DNA of 64,000 bases from an uncultured Rikenellaceae bacterium (GCA_964638955.1 CAZWZQ010000006.1:2400-66399); one strand, 5' to 3'. Numbered from the stretch's first letter, positions 8,875 through 54,680 are shown. Made by a program: numbers and translations. Notes: generated by a model from the sequence alone, not told the origin.

Positions 8875-9777
8875 TTATGTCATCAGGCATGCCAGGGCAA
8901 TGCAATAATACTTTGATTTCTCGCTTTCGCTACGTGACATTACTATAACAGGTTTTTCCGTACCTCTTATTAGTCCCGCAAGTTCACCCTGTGCAAAAAG
9001 CATAAGGCTCTTATAGAAAGGATTGCATGATTCGAGTGAAGGGAACAGGAGAATATCGGCATTACCTCCCACCGGAGTGTTAACTCCTTTAATTTCAACA
9101 CTTTCTTTGTCGCATGCAAGAAAGAGATCGAGCGGGCCGTCCATGATACAGTTTTTAATAAGTCCCTTTTCAGACATTCTGCACATCTCAGGGTAATCGA
9201 CGGAGTACTGGAAATGGCGGCTTGGTTTTTCAGAAGCTCCAATAAGGGCTACCACTGGTTTTTCAATACCGAACTTTGTGGCCATTTCAACAGCATAATT
9301 TGCCATTGCCACCTTTTGATCAAGATCAGGAAAAGGTATCACTGCAGGGTCGGTAATGAACAGAAGCTTATGGTATGAAGGGACTTCAACTGCGCAAACA
9401 TAGCTCAGGACGGCTCCCGGGGTCATGAGTCCCGATTCCTTTTCCATTACCGCCTTCAGAAATTTGTCGGTCCCAACCAGGCCCTTCATAACAATATCTG
9501 CCGTACCGTTTTTTGCCAGTTTCACGGCTTCGGCTGCTGCTTCTGCTTCATCGTCAATATCGATGATCCTGAATTTTGTATGGTCAATACCCTTTTTACT
9601 ACAGACATTTTTTATCTCCCCGCTCTTCCCTATCATTATTGCGCTGACAAAACCATCATTTACTGCCTTGCCTATGGCACCTACAGTATTAATATCCTGT
9701 GCCCAGGCAACGGCTATAGTATGCTTCTTTTTCAGCGCAAGCACCTTATCCACCATCTGGTCGAGGGAGCTGATCAT
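8875..9777 (-). CDS. ptb: Phosphate butyryltransferase (PTA_PTB family)
   Basis: 300 aa. Its PTA_PTB-domain architecture is typical of Ptb (…ADIVMKGLVGT…, …PVIVMSRSES…). It lies directly upstream of buk. Confidence 0.88.
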   Translation of the reverse strand: MISSLDQMVDKVLALKKKHTIAVAWAQDINTVGAIGKAVNDGFVSAIMIGKSGEIKNVCSKKGIDHTKFRIIDIDDEAEAAAEAVKLAKNGTADIVMKGLVGTDKFLKAVMEKESGLMTPGAVLSYVCAVEVPSYHKLLFITDPAVIPFPDLDQKVAMANYAVEMATKFGIEKPVVALIGASEKPSRHFQYSVDYPEMCRMSEKGLIKNCIMDGPLDLFLACDKESVEIKGVNTPVGGNADILLFPSLESCNPFYKSLMLFAQGELAGLIRGTEKPVIVMSRSESEKSKYYCIALACLMT

Positions 9778-9785
9778 AGGATCTT

Positions 9786-10688
9786 TTATTTGCTGGCTGC
9801 TGCTGAGAGAAGTATACTGTCGTATTTTGCCTGTTCCGAATCAGATCTGGAGGTCAGTACGATTGGGACTCTGGCACCAAGGATCACTGATGCAACTTTT
9901 GCTTTGGCGAAGAAAACGAGTGATTTATAAAGGACATTACCAACTTCAATATCGGGCATCAGAAGCAGGTCAGTGTCGCCGGCCACTTCACTTCTTATTC
10001 CTTTGTGTTTTGCGCTTTCGAGGCTCACCGCATTATCGAATGCCAGGGGGCCGTCAATAATGCAATTCTTTATTTGGTCGCGCTGATTCATCTTTGAGAG
10101 AAGTGCAGCGTCAAGAGTGGCTCCCATATTTTCGTTCACCATCTCCACGGCTCCGAGCACTGCCACTTTTGGCATTGTATAACCAAGTCTGATAAGACAA
10201 TTAACCGAATTGTTTATTATGGCGATCTTGTCTCTCAGATTAGGTGCGATATTCATTGCCACATCAGTTACAGCAATAACCTTGGGATATGTATCAACTT
10301 CAAAAAGTGCAAAATGAGAAAGAAGATTCCCGGTACGCAGTCCCCATTCTTTATTCAGAATACATTTGAGTAAAGTAGAGGATCCAACCTTTCCTTTCAT
10401 CAGGATATCTCCCTCATTATTGTTCACCATTTTTACTGCCATTTCGACAGCCATTTCAACACCGGACTCATGAATGATCCTGAGTCCTGAAATGTCATAA
10501 TTATTGGCTGCGCATATATTCTGGATACTCTCTTTATCACCAATAAGGATGGGTTCTATAATGTTATCTTTCCATGCTCTTACTACAGCGCTGAGAGATT
10601 GCTGATCCTGAGCTGTAGCAAGGACAAGCTTCTTCTTTGGTCCGCCAGCCACTATGTTTTTAAGGTCTGCAAGGGTCTTTAATACCAT
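9786..10688 (-). CDS. Second, divergent phosphate acyl(butyryl)transferase paralog
   Basis: 300 aa with the same PTA_PTB architecture (…GDILMKGKVGS…, …PIVLTSRSDS…). Most positions differ from the neighbouring ptb. Confidence 0.85.
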   Translation of the reverse strand: MVLKTLADLKNIVAGGPKKKLVLATAQDQQSLSAVVRAWKDNIIEPILIGDKESIQNICAANNYDISGLRIIHESGVEMAVEMAVKMVNNNEGDILMKGKVGSSTLLKCILNKEWGLRTGNLLSHFALFEVDTYPKVIAVTDVAMNIAPNLRDKIAIINNSVNCLIRLGYTMPKVAVLGAVEMVNENMGATLDAALLSKMNQRDQIKNCIIDGPLAFDNAVSLESAKHKGIRSEVAGDTDLLLMPDIEVGNVLYKSLVFFAKAKVASVILGARVPIVLTSRSDSEQAKYDSILLSAAASK

Positions 10689-10706
10689 ATATTATTTGTT
10701 TTATTT

Positions 10707-11918
10707 TTAAGATGTAATTTGTTCAACAATTGATCGGGTATCGGAAGCTATAACAAATTCCTCATCTGTTGTTACAGACATTACCGTGATTCTTGATTCA
10801 GGTTTTGAAATGATAAGATCATCACCTCTCGATCCGTTATTTGCTTCATCGTCGAAAATGATCCCAAGGCTTTCCATTTCAGAACAGATCATTCTTCGCA
10901 TATTGAAATCATTCTCTCCTATCCCGCCGGTGAAGACCAGGAGATCCGCCCCGTTCATGGCTGCACAATATGAACCAATGAATTTCTTTGCCTTGTATGC
11001 ATACATTTTCAGGGCAAGTATTGCCTTTTTATTGCCGGCATCAGCGGCAGTTTCAAGATCACGCATATCCGAAGATATCTGGGAAATACCGAAAACACCG
11101 CTCTTTTTATTAATCATATTATTTACACCCGCAACATTAAGATGCTCTTTATCAGCAATATAGACAAGCACTCCGGGATCTATTTCTCCTGTACGTGTTC
11201 CCATTATCAGTCCGTCAACGGGGGTGAAACCCATTGATGTATCGACTGAAATGCCATTCTGTACAGCAGTTATTGATGCACCATTACCAAGGTGGCATGT
11301 AATGATCTTAAGCTCTTTTATGTCTTTGCCGAGGATCTTTGCAGCTTTATATGCAACAAATTTATGACTTGTTCCATGGTAGCCATACTTACGTATCCTG
11401 TATTTCTCATAATACTCGTATGGTATAGCGTACATATAGGCATAGTCGGGCATGGTCTGGTGAAATGATGTATCGAAAACGGCAACCTGCGGAATGCCCG
11501 GGATAAGCTTGTCCACAGATAATATTCCTTTAAGGTTTGCCGGATTATGAAGTGGTGCCAGCTCGATGCATGCCTCAATATTCTTCTTGACATCGTTATC
11601 AATAAGGACACTCTCCTTATAGCTCTCTCCGCCGTTAACAACCCTGTGACCCACGGCTTTTATTTCGTTGACATCTCTGATCACACCATATCTGGGATCG
11701 CACAGGACCTCCATTACCATGTTTATGCCCGTGGTATGATCGGGAATATCGGTGATCACCTTATATTGTTCCCCTCCTGTCGGAGTGTGAGTCAAAATAC
11801 TCTCATTCAACCCTATACGTTCCAGAAGTCCTTTTGCTTTCATCTCGCAGCCGTCAGACATATCGAACAGCTGGTATTTTATTGATGAACTTCCGCAATT
11901 TAAAACCAGAATAATCAT
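10707..11918 (-). CDS. ackA: Acetate kinase
   Basis: 403 aa. Motifs: ILVLNCGSSSIKYQLF, GHRVVNGG, YGYHGTSH, FTGGIGEN. Confidence 0.96.
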   Translation of the reverse strand: MIILVLNCGSSSIKYQLFDMSDGCEMKAKGLLERIGLNESILTHTPTGGEQYKVITDIPDHTTGINMVMEVLCDPRYGVIRDVNEIKAVGHRVVNGGESYKESVLIDNDVKKNIEACIELAPLHNPANLKGILSVDKLIPGIPQVAVFDTSFHQTMPDYAYMYAIPYEYYEKYRIRKYGYHGTSHKFVAYKAAKILGKDIKELKIITCHLGNGASITAVQNGISVDTSMGFTPVDGLIMGTRTGEIDPGVLVYIADKEHLNVAGVNNMINKKSGVFGISQISSDMRDLETAADAGNKKAILALKMYAYKAKKFIGSYCAAMNGADLLVFTGGIGENDFNMRRMICSEMESLGIIFDDEANNGSRGDDLIISKPESRITVMSVTTDEEFVIASDTRSIVEQITS

Positions 11919-11951
11919 TTTTGTATAATATATTTTTGTAAGTGAATCTAT

Positions 11952-12956
11952 TTATTTTACTCCTGCTGCCTGGTTTGCAGTTATTGCGATCATGCTCACG
12001 ATATCGTTCACAGAGCAGCCTCGTGAGAGGTCATTAATCGGTGCTGCCATACCCTGCAATATAGGTCCTATAGCTTCGGCATGGGCCAGTCGCTGAACCA
12101 GTTTATAGGCAATATTACCACAATTAAGGTCGGGAAAGACAAGGACATTAGCTTTTCCTGCAATCTTACTTCCAGGGGCTTTTTTTTGCCCTATTGCTTC
12201 AACAAGTGCTGCATCGCCCTGCAGTTCACCGTCAATCAGGAATTCGGGAGCCATCTGCTGGGCAATCTGTGTTGCATTTATTACCTTGTCGACCATCTCA
12301 TGCCTGGCACTCCCCTTTGTGGAGAAGCTCAGGATAGCCACTTTCGGGTCCATCCCTGCAAGTACTTTTGCTGTATGTGCCGATGCCACAGCAATCTCAG
12401 CCAGTTCTTTCTCGGTCGGATCAGGATGAACAGCCCCGTCAGCAAAGATAATTACGCCGTTATCACCGAAACTTTTATCAGGAAGTATCATGATAAATGC
12501 CCCTGATACAACTGAAATGCCGGGAGTTGTTTTAACATACTGGAATGCAGGACGGAGTACATCTCCTGTTGCATGGTCAGCACCGGATACCTCGCCGTCA
12601 GCATCACCGCTTTTTATCATCAGAACACCAAGATAAAGCGGATCTTCTATAAGCACTGATGCCTCTTCTCTTGTCAGTCCTTTGCTTTTCCTTAGTTCAA
12701 CCATAAGGTCGATGTACTGTTCTTTTTTACCATGCGATAAGGGATTTACAATCGTTGTTTTTTCAATATTTTTCAGACCCAGTTTTGATGCGTGAGACTC
12801 TATTTGTGCAGGATCACCTAACAGAATAATCTGAGCAAGTTCCTCTGCAACAGCAATATCTGCAGCTTTTATTATTCGCTCCTCATATCCTTCAGGCAGT
12901 ACGATCCTTTTATTGTATTTCCTTGCATTCTGTTTGATAATATCTAACAAGTCCAT
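11952..12956 (-). CDS. pta: Phosphate acetyltransferase (short form)
   Basis: 334 aa containing only a PTA_PTB domain (…ADGEVSGADHATGDVLRPA…, …INDLSRG…). It is the first gene of the five-gene run. Confidence 0.93.
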   Translation of the reverse strand: MDLLDIIKQNARKYNKRIVLPEGYEERIIKAADIAVAEELAQIILLGDPAQIESHASKLGLKNIEKTTIVNPLSHGKKEQYIDLMVELRKSKGLTREEASVLIEDPLYLGVLMIKSGDADGEVSGADHATGDVLRPAFQYVKTTPGISVVSGAFIMILPDKSFGDNGVIIFADGAVHPDPTEKELAEIAVASAHTAKVLAGMDPKVAILSFSTKGSARHEMVDKVINATQIAQQMAPEFLIDGELQGDAALVEAIGQKKAPGSKIAGKANVLVFPDLNCGNIAYKLVQRLAHAEAIGPILQGMAAPINDLSRGCSVNDIVSMIAITANQAAGVK

Positions 12957-45273: not shown

Positions 45274-45518
45274 TCGTTCTTGCACAATTTCAGGCTGCTA
45301 AGATAGCATTTTAATAAATTGACATAAAACAAATTATATCCAAAACAGGTACTCCGGAACCTGATTATTATCATAAGTTTATGCAAACAGTCGAAATTAT
45401 TTGACTATTGGACAATAATTTTTGATGAAGAGTGTGTTAAGAGTGCAGGTATTATTAAAAGATGTGCTATTTTTATATCAAAATTCATAACTATTTAATT
45501 GTTAATATTCTTTTTAAG

Positions 45519-45974
45519 GTGGAACAAAAGAAGATATACGTTGAACCTACGAACAAAACACCCCAGATTGACCTTAATCATCTTACAGGAGAATTGATCC
45601 TGTCTGGCAGATCAATTCCTGAAAATGCTGCCGAACTATATGAAAATATCTTGCAGTGGGTTACACAATATGCAGTAAATCCCCGCCAAACAACCAATCT
45701 GAGACTTAATCTTGAATACTTCAATACAGCCTCATCCATCTGGCTGGCAAAAATAGTAAAGGTCCTTTGCTTAATTACGAAGCCCGAAGCAACACTTATT
45801 ATTCACCTTTATTTCCATATTGAGGAATTCGACAGTATGGATATTGAGGATCTTAAGGATGCTTTAAGTCCTATCATTGATATGATCGGTACTCCATCTG
45901 TAAGCCTGGGAATTAAAATATATGGAACAGATGAAAGCGGCGAAATTCTCAAGGAGTCAATGGTTCTGATATAA
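45519..45974 (+). CDS. DUF1987/SiaC-like protein
   Basis: From the GTG at 45519: VEQKKIYVEPTNKTPQIDLNHLTGELILSGRSIPENAAELYENILQWV...LNLEYFNTASS. This matches the DUF1987 pattern as I recall it. The track's ATG at 45462 adds an implausible MCYFYIKIHNY... leader. Confidence 0.6.
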   Translation: MEQKKIYVEPTNKTPQIDLNHLTGELILSGRSIPENAAELYENILQWVTQYAVNPRQTTNLRLNLEYFNTASSIWLAKIVKVLCLITKPEATLIIHLYFHIEEFDSMDIEDLKDALSPIIDMIGTPSVSLGIKIYGTDESGEILKESMVLI

Positions 45975-46019
45975 ACCGTTTTTTAAACTTAACCTTATTT
46001 TACATTTTTTCATTTTTTT

Positions 46020-46048
46020 GGCCTAACTTTATTAGGCCATTTTAATTT
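46020..46048 (+). terminator. Possible terminator after the DUF1987 gene
   Basis: A GGCCTA/TAGGCC stem (46020-46025 / 46033-46038) is followed by the T-rich ATTTTAATTT. The stem is short. Confidence 0.35.
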
Positions 46049-46054
46049 ATTATT

Positions 46055-47563
46055 ATGTACAGGGTATTAATTGTATTGTTATCAATTTTCAGTGTTATGG
46101 AAATCTATTCCCAGGGCAAATCAACTGACAGACAGCCGGTTGCAGCAGGCAGTTTTTATGAGGCCAACAGGGATATTCTTCTGAGGGATATAGCAGGCCA
46201 TTTTACAAATTGCATGAAATCACCGGAGAACTGGAAGGTGAGAGCGATTATAAGTCCTCATGCAGGATATGTATTCTCAGGAACAATAGCAGCCTCGGCC
46301 ATCTCAGCAATACCTGAAAATGCTGAGATAGAAAATATCTTCCTTATTGGTTCGAGCCATGTAATGGCATTCGATGGAGCATCGGTATATAATATCGGCG
46401 ACTTTATTACACCTCTTGGTAAGGCAGAGGTAAACAAGGATATTGCCAGTAAACTCAAAAATGAGAACAAGGTCTTTAATTTTCCTGTCACTGCACACCT
46501 CCGGGAGCACAGTCTGGAAGTTCAGATTCCCCTGTTACAATATTATTATAAGAAAATACCGAAAATAGTCCCAATAGTAATCGGCACAAACAATACAAAC
46601 ACAATCAAATTGATAGCCGAAGCTCTCAGACCATGGTTCACTTCTGACAATCTCTTCGTGATAAGCAGTGACTTCTCCCATTATCCCTCCTACAAAGATG
46701 CCATTGAAGTAGACAATAGAACTGCTGAGGGCATTGTATCAGGTGATCCAAAGGTATTTCTTAACGCTCTCAAAGAAAATTCAGCAAAGAATATTAACGG
46801 ATTGGCAACAAGCATGTGCGGATGGGCTTCGGGACTTATGCTTATGTATCTTGCTGAGAATGATACTAATCTTGAATTTAAAAGAATAGACTACTGTAAT
46901 TCAGGAGATACTCCTTACGGAGATAAAAACAGGGTTGTCGGGTATCATGCCATTGCTCTGATTGAAAAAGGACAAACCACAAAAATGAATGAAGAATCTT
47001 CAACAACTCTTTCGTTCAGCAGATCGGAAAAAGATCAGCTTTTTGCCATTGCCAGAAACAGCATCAAAACGATGTTATATGAGAAGAAAAGGATAACCAT
47101 TGATGAAAAGAAGATCCCCGAATCACTCAAAAAACAGCTGGGGGCATTCGTAACTTTGAAGATTGACGGCAGGCTGAGGGGTTGTATAGGAAGATTTCTA
47201 TCATCCGATCCTCTTTACGAGGTTGTAAAGGAATCAGCTTTATCTTCTGCCTTTGAGGATACACGGTTTCTTCCACTTACCAAAGAGGAATATGATAACA
47301 CTGATATGGAGATAACCATCCTGGGTCCGATGAAAAAAATCAATAATATCAATGAGATAATCCTGGGTAAACATGGAATTTATATAAAAAAGGGCTTTCG
47401 GTCAGGGACAATGCTGCCACAGGTCGCAATGGAAAATGGATGGACAGTTGAACAGTTCCTTGGTTATACATCGAGAGATAAAGCAGGTCTTGGGTGGGAT
47501 GGCTGGAAAGATGCCGAACTGTATATATATGAGGGTCTGGTGCTTGAAGAAAACAAAAAATAA
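46055..47563 (+). CDS. Fusion of AmmeMemoRadiSam system protein B (MEMO-like) and protein A (AMMECR1-like), with an N-terminal signal-like segment
   Basis: 502 aa. MEMO motifs: ISPHAGYVFSG, IGSSH, EHSLEVQIPLL, SSDFSHY, CGW. AMMECR1 motifs: GAFVTLKIDGRLRGCIGRF, DTRFLPL, GKHGIYI, MLPQV. N-terminus: MYRVLIVLLSIFSVMEIYSQ. Confidence 0.88.
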   Translation: MYRVLIVLLSIFSVMEIYSQGKSTDRQPVAAGSFYEANRDILLRDIAGHFTNCMKSPENWKVRAIISPHAGYVFSGTIAASAISAIPENAEIENIFLIGSSHVMAFDGASVYNIGDFITPLGKAEVNKDIASKLKNENKVFNFPVTAHLREHSLEVQIPLLQYYYKKIPKIVPIVIGTNNTNTIKLIAEALRPWFTSDNLFVISSDFSHYPSYKDAIEVDNRTAEGIVSGDPKVFLNALKENSAKNINGLATSMCGWASGLMLMYLAENDTNLEFKRIDYCNSGDTPYGDKNRVVGYHAIALIEKGQTTKMNEESSTTLSFSRSEKDQLFAIARNSIKTMLYEKKRITIDEKKIPESLKKQLGAFVTLKIDGRLRGCIGRFLSSDPLYEVVKESALSSAFEDTRFLPLTKEEYDNTDMEITILGPMKKINNINEIILGKHGIYIKKGFRSGTMLPQVAMENGWTVEQFLGYTSRDKAGLGWDGWKDAELYIYEGLVLEENKK

Positions 47564-47565
47564 TT

Positions 47566-49989
47566 ATGTATCATGTTGTCGGAACAGGTATCGCTGTTTC
47601 TGTTTTATACTTAATAAGTTTTATTTTTTACCGTATTGGCCTTTTTTCCCAGGCCCGTCACAGGAAAATATGGAATACCATCCTTGCCGTAACATTTCTT
47701 ATTACAGCACTGGCAGGATTGTTTCTGGCCCTTCAAATCAATTATAAATGGGATTTACCTGTAGTAAAATCTGTCCTTAAATGGCATGTTGAGACAGGAG
47801 CCGGATTTGCAATTACAGGGGTATTCCACCTCATCTGGCATCTTAGCTATTTCACAAGGTTATTTAAAAGAACAGAAGAGCCCCGTAAGTTTAAAAGCCT
47901 GTTAAAGATGAGCTCTTCAGATATCGCTATTAACCTGTTTGTCATCGGGTTTACAAGTATGTCCATTCAGATACTGCTCATTCGGGAAATTATGAATATT
48001 TCCGGAGGTTATGAACTGACAGCAGGTACATTTCTTGCCTCATGGCTTATTACCTCTGCAATTGGAGCTGCAACCGCTGGCAGCTCATCATTGAATGATA
48101 TCCGAAAGATCAATCTGGTATTTTCAATAAGCCCCATAATATCATTAATATTGTTTTTCCTGCTGTCCAGGCTTTTTCTTCAGCCCGGAGAGACCCCGTC
48201 ATTCCTGGTAAGCATGATCTTCACTTTCCTGGTACTTATCCCATTCTGTCTTGTATCAGGTTTCACCTTTGTGAAACTCTTAGCTGCCGCAAAGTCGACA
48301 AATGATTTTATTCCCGGAAAATCTTACTCAATTGAAACAATCGGTAGCATCGCAGCCGGTTTGATAATATCGGTCCTCACAGCAGGTTTGTTAAACACAT
48401 ACAAGCTTCTCTTCACAATCATATTGATATCGATAACTTACACCATACTGACATTCTATATTAAAGACAGAAATAAGAAAATCATTGTAAAATTATCGGT
48501 AGCACTGGTAGCAGCCTTTATAATAATAGCTGATCCGGATATCTTTTTCAGGCAGCTCCTTTTACCCGGTATTAAAGTAACAGAAACCAGGGAAACTCCT
48601 TATGGGAGCATAACCTACGGAGAGTATGGAGGTGAAAGGAGTATTTATTACAATCAACGTCTGCTTACATATATCGACGATGTTACTGAAAGAGAGGAAA
48701 ATATACATTATGCGCTACTCCAGAAGAAAAACCCGGAAAAAGTGCTCCTTATCTCCGGTTCCTTGAAATCACACCTGCCAGAGGTACTTAAGTATCCAGT
48801 GAAAAAGGTTATTTTTATTGAAAGAGACCCTGAACTTATAAAAGCTGAAACAGAAAAGGCTGATCCCGGCAATACAGAACTCATAATTGAAAACAAGGAT
48901 GCATTCAAATATATAAAAGGAAAGGAAGATAAACTTGATGCGGTCCTGCTTCTGGTGCCGCCTCCTTCCACTCTCTCGCTTAACAGGTACTATACAAGTG
49001 AATTTTTTAATGATGTAAAGGAGAGACTGGTTCCTGATGGTGTTTTCATGTGTTCACCCGGAATCTGGGATAACTACCCCAACAAAGAGTCAATAACCTT
49101 GTTTTCATCTATTTATAACAGCCTTAACGGAGTGTTCTCTTATGTCAAGCCGGTTGTGGGTAACAAGCTTTATTACATTGCATCTGACAATGAATTATCG
49201 GCTTCGATATGCAGACTTACAGAATTAAGAAGTATCGAAAATATATATGTCGGATCCGATTTCCTCTCTGACGACCTGATTGAGAAAAAAACTTCCGAGG
49301 TCATTTCTCTTCTTGATAAGGAGGTAAGAGAAAACAGGGCAGTATTTCCGATAGCCAGCTTTCACTTTCAGTCGTATTTTTTAAGTAAGAACCTTAACGA
49401 GAAAATACCTGCAATCATAATTATGATTCTTGTATTCGCATTACCGGTACTGTCAATTCGCAGACGCAATCTCATGATGTATTTTGGTGCAGCAGGTCTT
49501 GCCGGATTTGAAATAATAGTATTACTGTCATTACAGATTACTGCCGGGAACATGTATCAGATAACAGGAATTATACTGGCTCTTTTTATGGCCGGACTGG
49601 CAGCCGGATCAGGCATAAATCTCAAATTCCTGAATCGTATACCGCTTAAGATCAAAGCTTTGATCCTTGTTACCTGGTATACCGGAATTGCTCTGATTAT
49701 TAACTATTTGTTATCCTTCACCAGCATTCCGGCAGCAATTTCTATTATTATGTTTTCAGTTCTTCCTCCCTCATTCATGACCGGACATATTTTCAGGGAA
49801 CTGACTTTCAGTGACAGTGATGGTTCAGCATCTGCCATAACCTATGGTGCTGATCTTGCAGGCTCGGCATTCGGATTCATAATTGTTTCAGGTATGGCTG
49901 TACCTGTTCTTGGTATAAAAACCTCAATATTTTTATTATCAGGTCTGATTTTTGCTGGGATTCTTCTTGGAACAAACAGGAATAAATAG
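47566..49989 (+). CDS. Polytopic membrane protein with a central spermidine-synthase-like domain (fused MFS/SpeE-like architecture), with degenerate motifs
   Basis: 807 aa. It has about 10 N-terminal TM helices, then a soluble domain (VLLISGSLKSHLPEVLKYPVKKVIFIERDPELI; DAVLLLVPPPSTLSLNRYYTSEFF...LVPDGVF), then about 5 C-terminal TM helices. It starts 2 nt after the previous stop. Confidence 0.75.
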   Translation: MYHVVGTGIAVSVLYLISFIFYRIGLFSQARHRKIWNTILAVTFLITALAGLFLALQINYKWDLPVVKSVLKWHVETGAGFAITGVFHLIWHLSYFTRLFKRTEEPRKFKSLLKMSSSDIAINLFVIGFTSMSIQILLIREIMNISGGYELTAGTFLASWLITSAIGAATAGSSSLNDIRKINLVFSISPIISLILFFLLSRLFLQPGETPSFLVSMIFTFLVLIPFCLVSGFTFVKLLAAAKSTNDFIPGKSYSIETIGSIAAGLIISVLTAGLLNTYKLLFTIILISITYTILTFYIKDRNKKIIVKLSVALVAAFIIIADPDIFFRQLLLPGIKVTETRETPYGSITYGEYGGERSIYYNQRLLTYIDDVTEREENIHYALLQKKNPEKVLLISGSLKSHLPEVLKYPVKKVIFIERDPELIKAETEKADPGNTELIIENKDAFKYIKGKEDKLDAVLLLVPPPSTLSLNRYYTSEFFNDVKERLVPDGVFMCSPGIWDNYPNKESITLFSSIYNSLNGVFSYVKPVVGNKLYYIASDNELSASICRLTELRSIENIYVGSDFLSDDLIEKKTSEVISLLDKEVRENRAVFPIASFHFQSYFLSKNLNEKIPAIIIMILVFALPVLSIRRRNLMMYFGAAGLAGFEIIVLLSLQITAGNMYQITGIILALFMAGLAAGSGINLKFLNRIPLKIKALILVTWYTGIALIINYLLSFTSIPAAISIIMFSVLPPSFMTGHIFRELTFSDSDGSASAITYGADLAGSAFGFIIVSGMAVPVLGIKTSIFLLSGLIFAGILLGTNRNK

Positions 49990-50018
49990 TAGTTTTATTC
50001 TTTGTGCCGGTTGAAAAA

Positions 50019-51155
50019 ATGACAGATAAAAATTTCGATATCAGCAAACGTGATTTTGTGAAGAAATGCCTCGCATTATCAGCAGGTGTGGTCGCAATGC
50101 CATGCCACGGAGTTATGAGCTGTATGATCCCGGAGGAGCAGGAGCTTTACAGGAAGGTTGCCATGTTCCAGGAAGAGACGCCAAGAGGGATAATGTGCCG
50201 GATCTGTCCAAATGAATGTGTACTTAAAGAGGGTGAGGTAAGTGACTGCAGAAACAGGATAGTACGCAAGTCAAAGTTATATACCATGGCATATGGCAAT
50301 CCATGCTCCGCTAATGTCGACCCTATCGAAAAAAAACCACTGTATCATTTCTTGCCGGGATCAAGGGCATTTTCAATAGCCACAGCAGGCTGCAATCTTG
50401 TTTGTCTTAACTGCCAGAACTGGGCTATTTCACAAACCAGCCCTGACAAAACAAGAAACTTTAACCTGCCTCCTGAAAGAGTTGTGGAAGAGAGTATAAG
50501 GAACAATTGCCTCTCTATTGCATATACCTATTCTGAACCTGTTACTTTTTACGAATATACCTACGAAACAGCTGTTATTGCAAAAAAATCGGGCATAAAG
50601 AATGTCTTTAAATCAAATGGATATATAAATCCTGAACCGCTGAAAAAGCTTTGCACCGTCCTGGATGCAGCCAATATTGACCTGAAATCATTCAATAACA
50701 ATACATATCTGAAGCTAACCGGAGGTAAACTTCAACCTGTGCTCGATGCATTAAAGATATACAAGGAGATGGGAGTCTGGCTTGAAATAACTAACCTCAT
50801 TGTGCCAAAATGGACTGATAATACTGATGAAATAGGCTTAATGTGTAAATGGCTCGGTGAAAACGGATTTAAAGATACTCCCCTGCATTTCAGCAGGTTT
50901 TATCCCACTTACAAACTTGAACAATTACCTCCGACACCTGTTGAACTGTTAAAGACCGCATACAGAATTGCTACCGGTGAAGGATTACAATATGTCTATA
51001 TCGGTAATGTTCCCGGTAATGAAATGGCTGATACAAAATGTCCCAACTGCGGTACAACTGTTATTGCCAGACAGGGTTACACGATAACAGCAAACAAAAT
51101 TAAGGATGGCAGATGTACCAAATGCAATACAATAATTGAGGGTGTCTGGAGCTGA
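50019..51155 (+). CDS. AmmeMemoRadiSam system radical SAM enzyme
   Basis: It has the radical SAM cluster motif CNLVCLNC (CX3CX2C), an N-terminal CRICPNEC...C, and a C-terminal zinc-ribbon-like CPNCG...CTKC. The N-terminus ISKRDFVKKCLALSAGVVAM is Tat-like. I prefer the ATG at 50019 over the GTG at 50004. Confidence 0.88.
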   Translation: MTDKNFDISKRDFVKKCLALSAGVVAMPCHGVMSCMIPEEQELYRKVAMFQEETPRGIMCRICPNECVLKEGEVSDCRNRIVRKSKLYTMAYGNPCSANVDPIEKKPLYHFLPGSRAFSIATAGCNLVCLNCQNWAISQTSPDKTRNFNLPPERVVEESIRNNCLSIAYTYSEPVTFYEYTYETAVIAKKSGIKNVFKSNGYINPEPLKKLCTVLDAANIDLKSFNNNTYLKLTGGKLQPVLDALKIYKEMGVWLEITNLIVPKWTDNTDEIGLMCKWLGENGFKDTPLHFSRFYPTYKLEQLPPTPVELLKTAYRIATGEGLQYVYIGNVPGNEMADTKCPNCGTTVIARQGYTITANKIKDGRCTKCNTIIEGVWS

Positions 51156-53180
<2,025 letters not shown>

Positions 53181-53223
53181 TCTTACACTGTTTACATTAA
53201 CAAAAAACTGTTAGGTTTGCATT

Positions 53224-53805
53224 ATGGAACTCTTCAGGGAAATCAGGCTGAAAATCGGAAATTCTATCCTTTCAAAAAAGACCGGAAAGGTCATAAGAAA
53301 AGTATACTACTCAAATATCAGCCGGATAAAGAATATAGGAATAATATGGGATGCATCAAAACCTGAAGATTTCGTGAATCTTTCAGAATTTCACCAGAGC
53401 ATGAATGATAGGAATATCAATGTGTCCATTCTTGGATACTACCCGGGAAAAGAACTTCCGGATAAATATACAGCATTAAGATACCTTTCGTGTATTCGCA
53501 GAAAAGAGATAAGTTTTTTCTATATCCCTGTGTCGGAAGAGTCTGATTCTTTCACCAATACGATGTTTGACATACTTATCGATATCAATTTCGAAAAGTT
53601 ATTTCCTTTATCGTACATATCAGCCCTGTCTAAAGCCAGTTTTAAAGTAGGTCTTTTCGATCCGGAAACAAACAGTAATACTTTCGACCTGATGATTGAA
53701 TTAAAGAAACCTGTCTCTGTCAAGGATTACCTTACTCACGTTGTTCATTATCTTGAAATGATAAATTCAGGGTCATCTATTGAAATTAACAAAACCCAGA
53801 TATGA
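53224..53805 (+). CDS. Hypothetical protein
   Basis: 193 aa with no motif I recognise. It overlaps the dapA start by 4 nt (ATGA), which suggests translational coupling. Confidence 0.6.
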   Translation: MELFREIRLKIGNSILSKKTGKVIRKVYYSNISRIKNIGIIWDASKPEDFVNLSEFHQSMNDRNINVSILGYYPGKELPDKYTALRYLSCIRRKEISFFYIPVSEESDSFTNTMFDILIDINFEKLFPLSYISALSKASFKVGLFDPETNSNTFDLMIELKKPVSVKDYLTHVVHYLEMINSGSSIEINKTQI

Positions 53806-54680
53806 AAAAATTTAGAGGCACAGGTGTAGCCATCGTAACACCTTTCAAGAATGACTCAAGTATTGATTTCACTGCCATGGGCCGCGTTATCAATCATGTT
53901 ATCGAAGGAGGAGTCAATTACATTGTCGCTATGGGTACTACCGGCGAGGCTTCAACTCTTAGCAGGGATGAAAGACAGGCTCTGATATCTTATATTGTTG
54001 AAGCAGTTGATAACCGTATACCGGTTGTTGCGGGAATAGGTGGCAACAATACCCAGGAAATCATTAACACAATAAGAGAGCTGAATCTGGAAGGAGTTGA
54101 TGGCATATTATCTGTTGCCCCGTATTATAATAAGCCGAACCAAAAGGGGATTTTTCAGCATTTTAAAGCCATTGCAACCTGCAGTCCGCTGCCTGTAATC
54201 ATTTACAACATTCCAGGAAGGACATGCAGCAACATCAGTTCCGACACATGTATTGAACTTGCTCATACATGTGAAAATATTGTTGCCGTAAAAGAAGCTT
54301 CGGGCGATCTGGCTCACATAATGAGGTTAATAAAAGGGAAACCGGAAAATTTCCTTGTAATCTCAGGCGATGACATGCTTACTCTGCCAATAATAGCAGC
54401 CGGAGGAGCCGGAGTTATTTCAGTACTTGCAAATGCTTACCCCGCACAGTGCAGTGAACTGGTAAATAACCTGCTGAAAAACAATTTTAAAGCTGCCCGT
54501 GAAATACAGTTACATTTCCTGGAGATAATCGAACTATTATTTACCGATGGAAATCCAGCCGGGATAAAGGCATTTTTAAGTATTATGAACCTGTGTGACA
54601 ACAATTTAAGATTGCCTCTGGTCCCGGTAAACCGTACGGTTTTTTTAAAGATCCAAAAAGTAATTGAAGATGTCGGATAG
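53802..54680 (+). CDS. dapA: 4-hydroxy-tetrahydrodipicolinate synthase
   Basis: 292 aa. Motifs: GTGVAIVTPF, MGTTGEASTL, YNIPGRT, VAVKEASGD (Schiff-base Lys). Confidence 0.96.
   Translation: MKKFRGTGVAIVTPFKNDSSIDFTAMGRVINHVIEGGVNYIVAMGTTGEASTLSRDERQALISYIVEAVDNRIPVVAGIGGNNTQEIINTIRELNLEGVDGILSVAPYYNKPNQKGIFQHFKAIATCSPLPVIIYNIPGRTCSNISSDTCIELAHTCENIVAVKEASGDLAHIMRLIKGKPENFLVISGDDMLTLPIIAAGGAGVISVLANAYPAQCSELVNNLLKNNFKAAREIQLHFLEIIELLFTDGNPAGIKAFLSIMNLCDNNLRLPLVPVNRTVFLKIQKVIEDVG

Follow-up and report, generated by a model that had tools for sequence, protein, structure and literature searches.

Conservation of MEMO1 and AMMECR1 extends from archaea to humans, and both have links to disease; in the AmmeMemoRadiSam system (amrA, amrB, and amrS; TIGR04335, TIGR04336, and TIGR04337) the two families cluster with a radical S-adenosylmethionine (SAM) enzyme. 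To our knowledge, neither MEMO1, nor AMMECR1, nor the radical SAM enzyme that accompanies them in prokaryotes has an established substrate or reaction. Enzymes of the radical SAM class depend on both SAM and a low-potential reductant and for that reason are regarded as cytoplasmic; we know of no periplasmic example. Here, we analyze one AmmeMemoRadiSam locus in a 64,000-nucleotide stretch of DNA, called the window below, from an uncultured Rikenellaceae bacterium (GCA_964638955.1 CAZWZQ010000006.1:2400-66399). The amr genes at this locus flank an inserted gene for a large membrane protein, which linkage across phyla marks as very probably a true component of the system. A previous reading of the DNA from sequence alone (the sequence-only reading) had overlooked that both soluble proteins carry export-type signals and that one domain of the membrane protein is predicted to face the periplasm; together these features changed the mechanistic interpretation. 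We now read the locus as a form of the AmmeMemoRadiSam system that works outside the cytoplasm, with SAM and/or electrons supplied to an exported enzyme by the membrane protein, and we put the probability of this reading at about 0.5.

The sequence-only reading had proposed an AmmeMemoRadiSam cluster of three genes, including a fused B-A protein and a membrane protein as a candidate fourth component, which it suggested might be a substrate, scaffold, or exporter. The open reading frame (ORF) list agrees with its coordinates, and the three components are encoded together on one strand:

46055-47563, + strand: amrB-amrA fusion gene (B-A), 502 amino acids (aa), with a signal peptide, a Memo domain, and an AMMECR1 domain; from the ORF list and hidden Markov models (HMMs)
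47566-49989, + strand: gene for the conserved membrane partner, 807 aa, 17 helices; from the ORF list, structural model, and Foldseek
50019-51155, + strand: amrS, AmmeMemoRadiSam radical SAM enzyme, 378 aa from the ATG; from the ORF list, HMMs, and homolog alignment

The spacers of 2 nt and 14 to 29 nt could be read from the sequence as claimed, and all of the motifs reported are present (ISPHAGYVFSG, EHSLEVQIPLL, SSDFSHY, LRGCIG, MLPQV, and CNLVCLNC). The family assignments also stood, with all three AmmeMemoRadiSam models scoring above their curated cutoffs. Residues 26 to 301 of the B-A protein match TIGR04336 (protein B) at 225.6 bits (cutoff, 26), residues 328 to 494 match TIGR04335 (protein A) at 157.8 bits (cutoff, 99), and Pfam likewise finds Memo (PF01875, 182 bits) and AMMECR1. 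The amrS product matches TIGR04337 at 339.8 bits (cutoff, 220), in agreement with Pfam Radical_SAM. The catalytic domains and Cys motifs are as follows:

46130-46957, + strand: Memo (AmmeMemoRadiSam protein B) domain, residues 26-301, keeping PHAGY, EHS, SSDFSH, and MCGW
47036-47536, + strand: AMMECR1 (AmmeMemoRadiSam protein A) domain, residues 328-494, keeping RGCIG and DTRF
50196-50219, + strand: extra Cys motif CRICPNEC, read from the sequence
50391-50414, + strand: CxxxCxxC radical SAM cluster motif CNLVCLNC, read from the sequence
51039-51125, + strand: extra Cys motifs CPNC...CTKC, read from the sequence

The AMMECR1 motifs RGChG and DxR[aromatic], as defined elsewhere (PMC2034487), take the form LRGCIG and EDTRF in this protein.

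Evidence that the membrane gene belongs with the amr genes comes from distant relatives. A genome scan with the membrane protein found 80 loci in Bacteroidales metagenome-assembled genomes (MAGs) at 50 to 93% identity, with the order ArgS, SiaC-like (not in L010 or L045), B-A, membrane protein, radical SAM enzyme, LigA, DUF6913, and DapA. As argS, ligA, and dapA are equally syntenic in this clade, we set these close relatives aside as non-discriminating. Such conservation, together with a ligA gene only 12 nt downstream, is what would be expected if adjacency were simply inherited gene order with no functional link. That explanation is effectively refuted by linkage counts in metagenomes: the linkage holds at 30% identity, across phyla, from 30 to 70% GC, in three gene orders, and among unrelated flanks, and argS, ligA, and dapA vanish from the distant neighborhoods.

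The distant contexts were those of relatives 30 to 45% identical to the membrane protein of the window, retrieved by membrane-protein similarity alone. A Bacteroidales MAG (L083) has B-A, an opposite-strand TonB-dependent receptor gene, the membrane gene, and the radical SAM gene, a Bacteroidota MAG (L089) has PFK, B-A, the membrane gene, and the radical SAM gene, and an Acidobacteriia contig (L178) has B-A, the membrane gene, and the radical SAM gene. Two Ignavibacteriales MAGs (L085 and L086) pair B-A with the membrane gene, followed by the radical SAM gene in L086 and by the end of the contig in L085. On two contigs of 70% GC (L176 and L180) the order is membrane gene, radical SAM gene, B-A, with stop and start codons overlapping. 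These overlaps, like the 2-nt spacers elsewhere, suggest translational coupling.

The family is large, with 5450 representatives at E <= 1e-3 and 1611 at E <= 1e-30 in an exhaustive profile-free search, and has two architectures, of ~810 to 850 aa and ~710 aa. Metagenomes were scanned with an alignment restricted to the ~710-aa form, and amr genes were sought by tblastn around the 80 resulting loci. Where the sequence ran 2 kb or more upstream, B-A was found in 43 of 49 loci, and where it ran 1.5 kb or more downstream, the radical SAM gene was found in 50 of 54; 32/36 loci had both and 2 had neither. When the flanking ORFs of 88 loci were clustered, no further family recurred in more than 10 of them, and those that did recur were lineage-specific neighbors, such as genes for a PD-(D/E)XK nuclease, an NTP transferase, and an HtrA-like protease. 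Linkage that persists across phyla, among membrane proteins of 30 to 48% identity and amid unrelated flanks, is specific to this subfamily and far beyond chance, in keeping with the earlier proposal of a fourth component. The unit is one of three genes encoding four domains.

Both soluble proteins begin with sequences that resemble export signals:

46055-46111, + strand: predicted Sec (signal peptidase I) signal peptide MYRVLIVLLSIFSVMEIYS, cut before Q; from the sequence and clade conservation
50019-50099, + strand: Tat-type signal or anchor on AmrS, S-K-R-D-F-V-K-K (50043-50066) and then a short Gly/Ala-rich hydrophobic stretch

The N terminus of B-A reads MYRVLIVLLSIFSVMEIYS and then QGK, with Gln at +1. 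This fits the "Q-rule" that Bochtler et al. reportedly described in 2018 for Bacteroidota, in which Gln stands at +1 after signal peptidase I cleavage. Position 1 of the TIGR04336 model first aligns at residue 26, past this extension. The signal peptide is kept throughout the clade (~75 members aligned) and is replaced in distant relatives by lipoprotein signals (..GCSSQ, ..FSNCKSQ, and ..LSAAC/K); among the metagenome loci, 50 of the 51 complete B-A N termini have a hydrophobic stretch, most with a lipobox. From these N termini we predict that the B-A fusion is exported by Sec, as a signal peptidase I substrate here and as a lipoprotein in most relatives.

AmrS begins MTDKNFDISKRDFVKKCLALSAGVVAM, and the TIGR04337 model starts only past its N-terminal extension, which in this variant consists of a Tat-type signal and a linker of ~20 aa. 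The clade consensus is S-K-R-x-F-[LIV]-K-[KR] followed by the short Gly/Ala-rich hydrophobic stretch, and FCB-type loci have [ST]-K-R-x-F-[LIM]-[KR] with a similar Gly/Ala-rich stretch; by regular expression, the K-R form occurs in 53/60 metagenome loci. A true twin arginine is found in more divergent, mostly GC-rich loci and in other phyla (SRREFIKK, SRREMIKR, SRRRFLKY, TRRRMLKY, IDRRRLLKRG, LTRRRFSKY, VRRRAFVKR, and MDRRDFLKC), including L128, L136, L160, L166, and L169 as judged by eye. A rough neighbor-joining (NJ) tree places the Tat-bearing AmrS proteins, except that of L179, apart from proteobacterial, actinobacterial, and Geobacter enzymes. AmrS is predicted to be exported or anchored, Fe-S clusters included, through this Tat-type signal. 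One or two Cys residues are also conserved in or just past the hydrophobic stretch (..GLMCFPC.., ..GACGFV.., and ..GGCVLG..), where there is no standard lipobox.

The membrane protein has the polytopic form and central spermidine-synthase-like domain that had been described for it, as judged by a 17-helix model and by PF01564 above its cutoff. The AlphaFold2 model (pLDDT, 73; pTM, 0.78) contains 3 plus 7 helices, an alpha/beta domain (residues 336 to 600), and 7 more helices. Spermine_synth is the sole Pfam domain, and the remainder is hydrophobic. Along the gene, the parts are as follows:

47566-47901, + strand: N-terminal three-helix His-rich module (H32, H74-x13-H88, and H92), putatively for heme b or electron transfer
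47914-48537, + strand: seven-helix N-terminal membrane half, read as six MFS-like helices plus an extra one leading the chain to the outer face
48463-48480, + strand: predicted cytoplasmic loop KDRNKK (residues 300-305), from charge bias
48571-49365, + strand: SpeE-fold (Rossmann, AdoMet-type) domain, predicted periplasmic, from Pfam, Foldseek, and charge bias
49393-49974, + strand: seven-helix C-terminal membrane half, from the model and helix prediction
49459-49470, + strand: predicted cytoplasmic loop RRRN (residues 632-635), from charge bias

The face that carries KDRNKK, RRRN, and the C terminus has 28 Lys and Arg residues and the opposite face has 5; in 23/23 diverse members the bias is 13 to 28 versus 0 to 7, with the low count on the side of the SpeE-like domain. 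This strong bias places the SpeE-like domain in the periplasm by the positive-inside rule, a prediction that applies across the family members compared. The architecture reads as an MFS 6+6 core plus two further helices, one before and one after the central loop, that would carry the domain across the membrane. FMN_bind domains are periplasmic in NosR, RnfG, and NqrC, and in one relative (P0444) the C terminus is followed by a single helix and then an FMN_bind domain, a geometry that agrees with a C-terminus-in topology.

The same proteins could be placed wholly in the cytoplasm if their N termini were not export signals and the system were docked on a membrane protein whose SpeE-like domain faced inward. 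The central loop of a canonical MFS protein is indeed cytoplasmic, as are SAM and low-potential reductants; the window lineage keeps K-R instead of R-R, and a Segatella amrS has no signal at all. However, most relatives have a lipobox Cys on B-A, canonical DRRDFLK-type motifs appear in other phyla, seven helices rather than six lie on each side of the domain with a charge bias that is strong and uniform, and the geometry of the FMN_bind fusion fits an outward topology. We consider the cytoplasmic arrangement improbable, and we think that the system is probably extracytoplasmic.

Kinship of the membrane helices to transporters is faint. Foldseek returned weak MFS matches (SLC45A4 and AmpG, E ~1e-3, with very high rmsd), and Pfam found no MFS match in the window protein. 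A motif recurs in the two halves, Y254-x2-E257-x2-GS (48325-48348) and Y760-x2-D763-x2-GS (49843-49866), with acidic residues E257 and D763 that are invariant or nearly so. This repetition points to an internal duplication and, possibly, to a binding site for a cationic substrate.

Part of the case for electron transfer comes from the N-terminal module of ~112 residues, in which W36, N37, H74, V75, G78, and H88 are invariant and R33, H92, and Y95 nearly so. H74 and H88 lie 13 residues apart on the same helix, and one such H-x13-H pair is seen. When 32 modules were scanned singly, DUF4405 was matched in 12, Ferric_reduct in 6, Ni_hydr_CYTB in 3, and Cytochrom_B561 in 2, all below threshold; the best DUF4405 match (E = 3.7e-4) falls below the Pfam gathering score. 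All four families are heme b transmembrane electron carriers, and the module offers a consistent but weak lead toward a heme b-type function. The ~710-aa relatives lack the module, their first ~115 residues being missing.

Other members carry redox domains at the opposite end. A C-terminal Fer4_5/NapH/NosR-like CxxCP polyferredoxin domain is fused in P0267, P0426, and P0440, and P0444 and P0453 carry NapH/NosR-like domains together with an FMN_bind domain that has a flavinylation-type TGAT(V)TS motif. P0426 (L176, 7001-10084) and P0440 (L180, 7001-9961) lie in membrane-radical SAM-B-A clusters; P0444 is encoded at L177, 1873-5577.

The central domain resembles SpeE in fold more than in active site. 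It matches PF01564 at 48.9 bits (cutoff, 22.9) over residues 380 to 498, and Foldseek aligns it to a polyamine aminopropyltransferase (1uir) with E = 4e-9 and a TM-score on the target of ~0.65, although the spermidine synthase equivalog TIGR00417 is not reached (38.3 bits versus 249.55). Aligned to solved SpeE structures, GGGDG becomes ISGSLKS and D-x-x-D-P becomes VPPPST. Lost catalytic residues and an equivalog score far below the cutoff rule out an active spermidine synthase. E419 and D445, which correspond to the ribose and adenine contacts of SpeE and of methyltransferases, are conserved family-wide, as are EE..H and NRYYT.EFF; distant relatives keep SGGxxG as well as LPEP, whose acidic residue occupies the catalytic position of SpeE. 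Missing throughout the family is the Asp of GGGDG, by which SpeE prefers decarboxylated SAM (dcSAM) to SAM. An adenosyl ligand is plausible for this domain, less certainly so in the window's own clade.

In a rival reading, the membrane protein is not a cofactor supplier but the transporter-enzyme of the pathway: the MFS-like core would move a substrate or product across the inner membrane, and the periplasmic SpeE-like domain would carry out an alkyl transfer, of a methyl or aminocarboxypropyl type, on the same small-molecule or lipid substrate as Memo, AMMECR1, and the radical SAM enzyme. The MFS-like fold matches (AmpG and SLC45A4) suit such a protein, paired acidic residues in repeated motifs (E257/D763) are typical of transporters, distant relatives retain SGGxxG and the acidic LPEP, and a TonB-dependent receptor or TonB-like gene stands beside the membrane gene in L081, L083, L088, and L179. 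Memo contexts have reportedly been tied, by a prediction of Burroughs et al. from 2019, to isoprenoid or base modification. Yet neither the glycine loop nor the acidic catalytic position (now VPPPST) survives in the window clade, where the gene is still strongly conserved, a periplasmic transferase would likewise need SAM outside the cell, and the NosR, NapH, and FMN_bind fusions are left unexplained. On balance, we regard the transporter-enzyme role as rather unlikely.

AmmeMemoRadiSam systems without the membrane gene provide a further comparison. Seven plasmid loci were found with the radical SAM enzyme as the query, and in six of them (Segatella, Trichlorobacter, Ideonella, Sinorhizobium, Methylocystis, and Mycobacterium) amrS has no N-terminal extension and there is no membrane gene within 5 to 6 kb; the plasmid proteins start where the extension ends (...EALFY...). 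The Ideonella B-A protein has no export signal. On the Segatella hominis plasmid NZ_CP137560.1 (L170, 3408-5825), the 491-aa B-A protein has a signal-like N terminus, MRKIVLVVLLTMCMMMEAK, in a cluster without a membrane gene, and the 295-aa AmrS has neither a Tat motif nor the C-terminal CxxC...CxxC ribbon. In the NJ tree the Segatella enzyme is sister to the Tat clade, and this system may have arisen from the exported type by reduction. Fusion of AMMECR1 to a dioxygenase-like partner was reported in 2007 (PMC2034487), Memo and AMMECR1 are fused in 51/53 metagenome loci, and both Ideonella and Segatella have the fusion in systems lacking the membrane gene; the B-A fusion is ordinary, already known, and not special to the window.

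Occurrence without the membrane gene bears on whether the membrane protein could itself be the substrate, with AmrS and Memo-AMMECR1 installing a modification or a radical on its periplasmic domain. Activases of glycyl radical enzymes, to which TIGR04337 shows its greatest similarity, act on proteins, and one-to-one gene linkage would be expected of a modifying enzyme and its target too. The trio is, however, widespread without the membrane protein, which makes the ancestral substrate something else, and we identified in it neither a motif of the glycyl-radical type nor another target site that is both conserved and exposed. The membrane protein also evolves faster than the enzyme domains at the same loci (50 to 60% versus 62 to 80% identity). 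A protein-substrate role therefore seems very improbable. In the more distant loci of the clade, identities are 50 to 60% for the membrane protein, 60 to 70% for Memo, 68 to 80% for AMMECR1, 67 to 75% for AmrS, and ~70% for ArgS and LigA.

We favor supply of SAM and/or electrons because a radical SAM enzyme outside the cytoplasm would need both, and because the sole conserved extra gene encodes a protein that is transporter-like and that bears, on its predicted outer side, a domain of nucleotide-binding type, often along with a redox module. In this model, Sec would export the B-A fusion and a Tat-type signal would export or anchor AmrS with its Fe-S clusters. SAM would be moved or presented by the MFS-like core and the periplasmic SpeE-like domain, and reducing equivalents would cross the membrane through the His-rich module or, in relatives, the fused NapH, NosR, and FMN_bind modules. 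The exported AmrS would then act with Memo-AMMECR1 on an envelope substrate at the outer face of the cytoplasmic membrane. In a variant of this scheme, SAM, bound while still in the cytoplasm, would be co-exported through Tat and serve as a regenerated cofactor, and the membrane protein would act mainly in reduction or substrate handling.

Several points weigh against supply by the membrane protein, or against an exported enzyme altogether. The periplasm is not known to contain SAM. AmrS of the window lineage carries K-R rather than the R-R of a canonical Tat signal, [ST]-R-R-x-F-L-K before a weakly hydrophobic stretch, and the PF10518 (TAT_signal) model scores only 11 to 14 bits (cutoff, 22.7), with a Rieske Tat-signal model also below threshold, as is usual for such short models. 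The degenerate glycine loop (ISGSLKS) makes SAM binding uncertain in the window clade. The N-terminal His-rich module was modeled at pLDDT < 50, and the ~710-aa relatives carry no redox module yet occupy the same cluster, so that electron supply is not a universal role. A few membrane genes have no B-A or radical SAM gene nearby (L081, L088, L139, L147, and L179). Finally, Segatella breaks a strict rule of all parts in one compartment, and compartment logic is not absolute. Supply of SAM or electrons remains a tentative assignment for the membrane protein, rather less likely than not when considered apart from where the system resides. The same doubt attaches to the most specific form of the model, a periplasmic radical SAM system whose membrane protein delivers SAM and electrons and which acts with secreted Memo-AMMECR1 on a cell envelope substrate.

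With regard to expression of the locus, we infer co-transcription of the three genes from their 2-nt and 29-nt spacers and from a terminator scan of the locus that found none between them. The 2 nt separate B-A from the membrane gene, and the membrane gene is followed by 29 nt to the ATG or 14 nt to the GTG of amrS, for which the ORF list gives two possible starts (GTG at 50004 and ATG at 50019). The ATG is the likely start, as homologs all begin at its equivalent, with the GTG as the alternative. Upstream of B-A lies a terminator-like element:

46019-46039, + strand: terminator-like hairpin and T-run between the SiaC-like gene and B-A, a consensus match only

The hairpin has an 8-bp stem with 4 GC pairs and the tail TTTTAATTTA, and the unit probably has its 5' boundary here. 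A search for Bacteroidota-type promoter patterns returned nothing near the locus, and a sigma-70 promoter scan is uninformative for Bacteroidota.

The SiaC-family (DUF1987) gene before the hairpin (45462-45974, + strand; PF09345, 77.8 bits) ends 80 nt upstream of B-A. It is kept in most of the 80 clade loci and missing from L010, L045, and the distant clusters, and it was rejected as a member of the system, being restricted to the clade, absent from those two loci, and followed by the terminator-like hairpin. On the other side, ligA begins 12 nt past the amrS stop (51155/51168), and ligA, the DUF6913 gene, and dapA run in the same direction over 51168-54680. With ligA this close to amrS, tight spacing here is no proof of shared function.

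Some loci depart from this layout. The spacer between the membrane and radical SAM genes is ~120 to 560 nt in L012, L015, L021, L025, L028, and L030, compared to ~30 nt in the window. Three of the 80 clade loci (L033, at 10524-12920 on the minus strand, L051, and L061) have a gene for a 798-aa FtsX/MacB permease on the opposite strand between the membrane and radical SAM genes, a 2.7-kb insertion that we judged to be unrelated. In three Bacteroidota loci, a gene for a ~750-aa TonB-dependent receptor (CarbopepD_reg_2/Plug/barrel) lies divergent beside the membrane gene, in two of the three between it and B-A:

L081 5622-7877, - strand: TonB-dependent receptor gene
L083 5619-7916, - strand: TonB-dependent receptor gene
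L088 5559-7778, - strand: TonB-dependent receptor gene

In an Aminicenantes locus (L179), a gene for a TonB-C-terminal protein follows the membrane gene (9256-10251, + strand). TonB-related neighbors in four loci hint at trafficking of a substrate through the envelope. DUF362 and DUF6599 genes adjoin the radical SAM gene in two unrelated loci, L089 (11877-13609, - strand) and L179 (3973-5899), and may be an accessory pair, with DUF362 in only 3/88 loci and too rare to call.

What appears to be new here is the membrane partner and the predicted export signals; the trio and the B-A fusion were already known. Literature searches returned no functional study of AmmeMemoRadiSam or of fused MFS/spermidine synthases, and the searchable papers offer predictions only; nor did any paper found describe the membrane partner, the export signals, or a radical SAM enzyme in the periplasm. 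A prior description is possible, most likely in the 2019 paper by Burroughs et al. (JBC), which reportedly covers extended Memo gene contexts. The variant is widespread, its membrane partner is constant, and it is predicted to lie at the outer face of the membrane, which narrows the search for a substrate toward envelope lipids or other periplasmic molecules. If the proposed reading is correct, this would be the first radical SAM system in the periplasm, extending where such chemistry can occur, and part of the large "fused MFS/spermidine synthase" family, so far unstudied, would gain its first assigned function.

Among characterized radical SAM enzymes, the closest relative of AmrS is the pyruvate formate-lyase activating enzyme (TIGR02493, 55.7 bits versus a cutoff of 231.75). 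The two have the CxxxCxxC motif in common, whereas AmrS has extra N- and C-terminal Cys motifs and an export signal, and its locus holds no glycyl radical enzyme partner. The central domain of the membrane protein, in turn, has in common with SpeE its fold, EE..H, and the acidic residues at the ribose and adenine contacts; GGGDG, D-x-x-D-P, and an equivalog-level score are missing here.

The membrane protein as a whole sits at the edge of the NCBI "fused MFS/spermidine synthase" family, and in source annotations its close homologs are called "hypothetical protein" or "spermidine synthase." Fused MFS/spermidine synthases (NF037959) and membrane-bound SpeE (PRK03612) also combine a polytopic region with a SpeE-fold domain. 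Against NF037959 (cutoff, 40 bits) the window protein gives no match at E < 0.001, and relatives score 29.9 to 50 (P0194, 50; P0144, 40.6); a clear member from Sorangium (110 bits) has no amr genes nearby. For PRK03612, the window protein reaches 64 bits against a cutoff of 472. In contrast to both families, it adds a second membrane half after the domain and a His-rich module, and it has lost the SpeE catalytic residues. MsrPQ and the NosR/NapH systems, in which a dedicated membrane electron-transfer protein serves a periplasmic redox enzyme, provide a parallel by analogy only to a cofactor enzyme with a Tat-type signal that is paired with a membrane protein bearing a heme b-like module or, in relatives, NapH/NosR/FMN_bind modules, as the matches are below threshold, there is no family membership, and the enzyme served here would be a radical SAM enzyme.

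AmmeMemoRadiSam itself remains the nearest described system, with the same families, clustering, and catalytic motifs. Its other members are soluble and without export signals, a feature that is implicit rather than part of the HMM definitions and that does not hold at this locus. Compared to them, the variant in the window is distinguished by an obligatory membrane gene, a predicted signal peptide on B-A, and a Tat-type signal and linker on AmrS.

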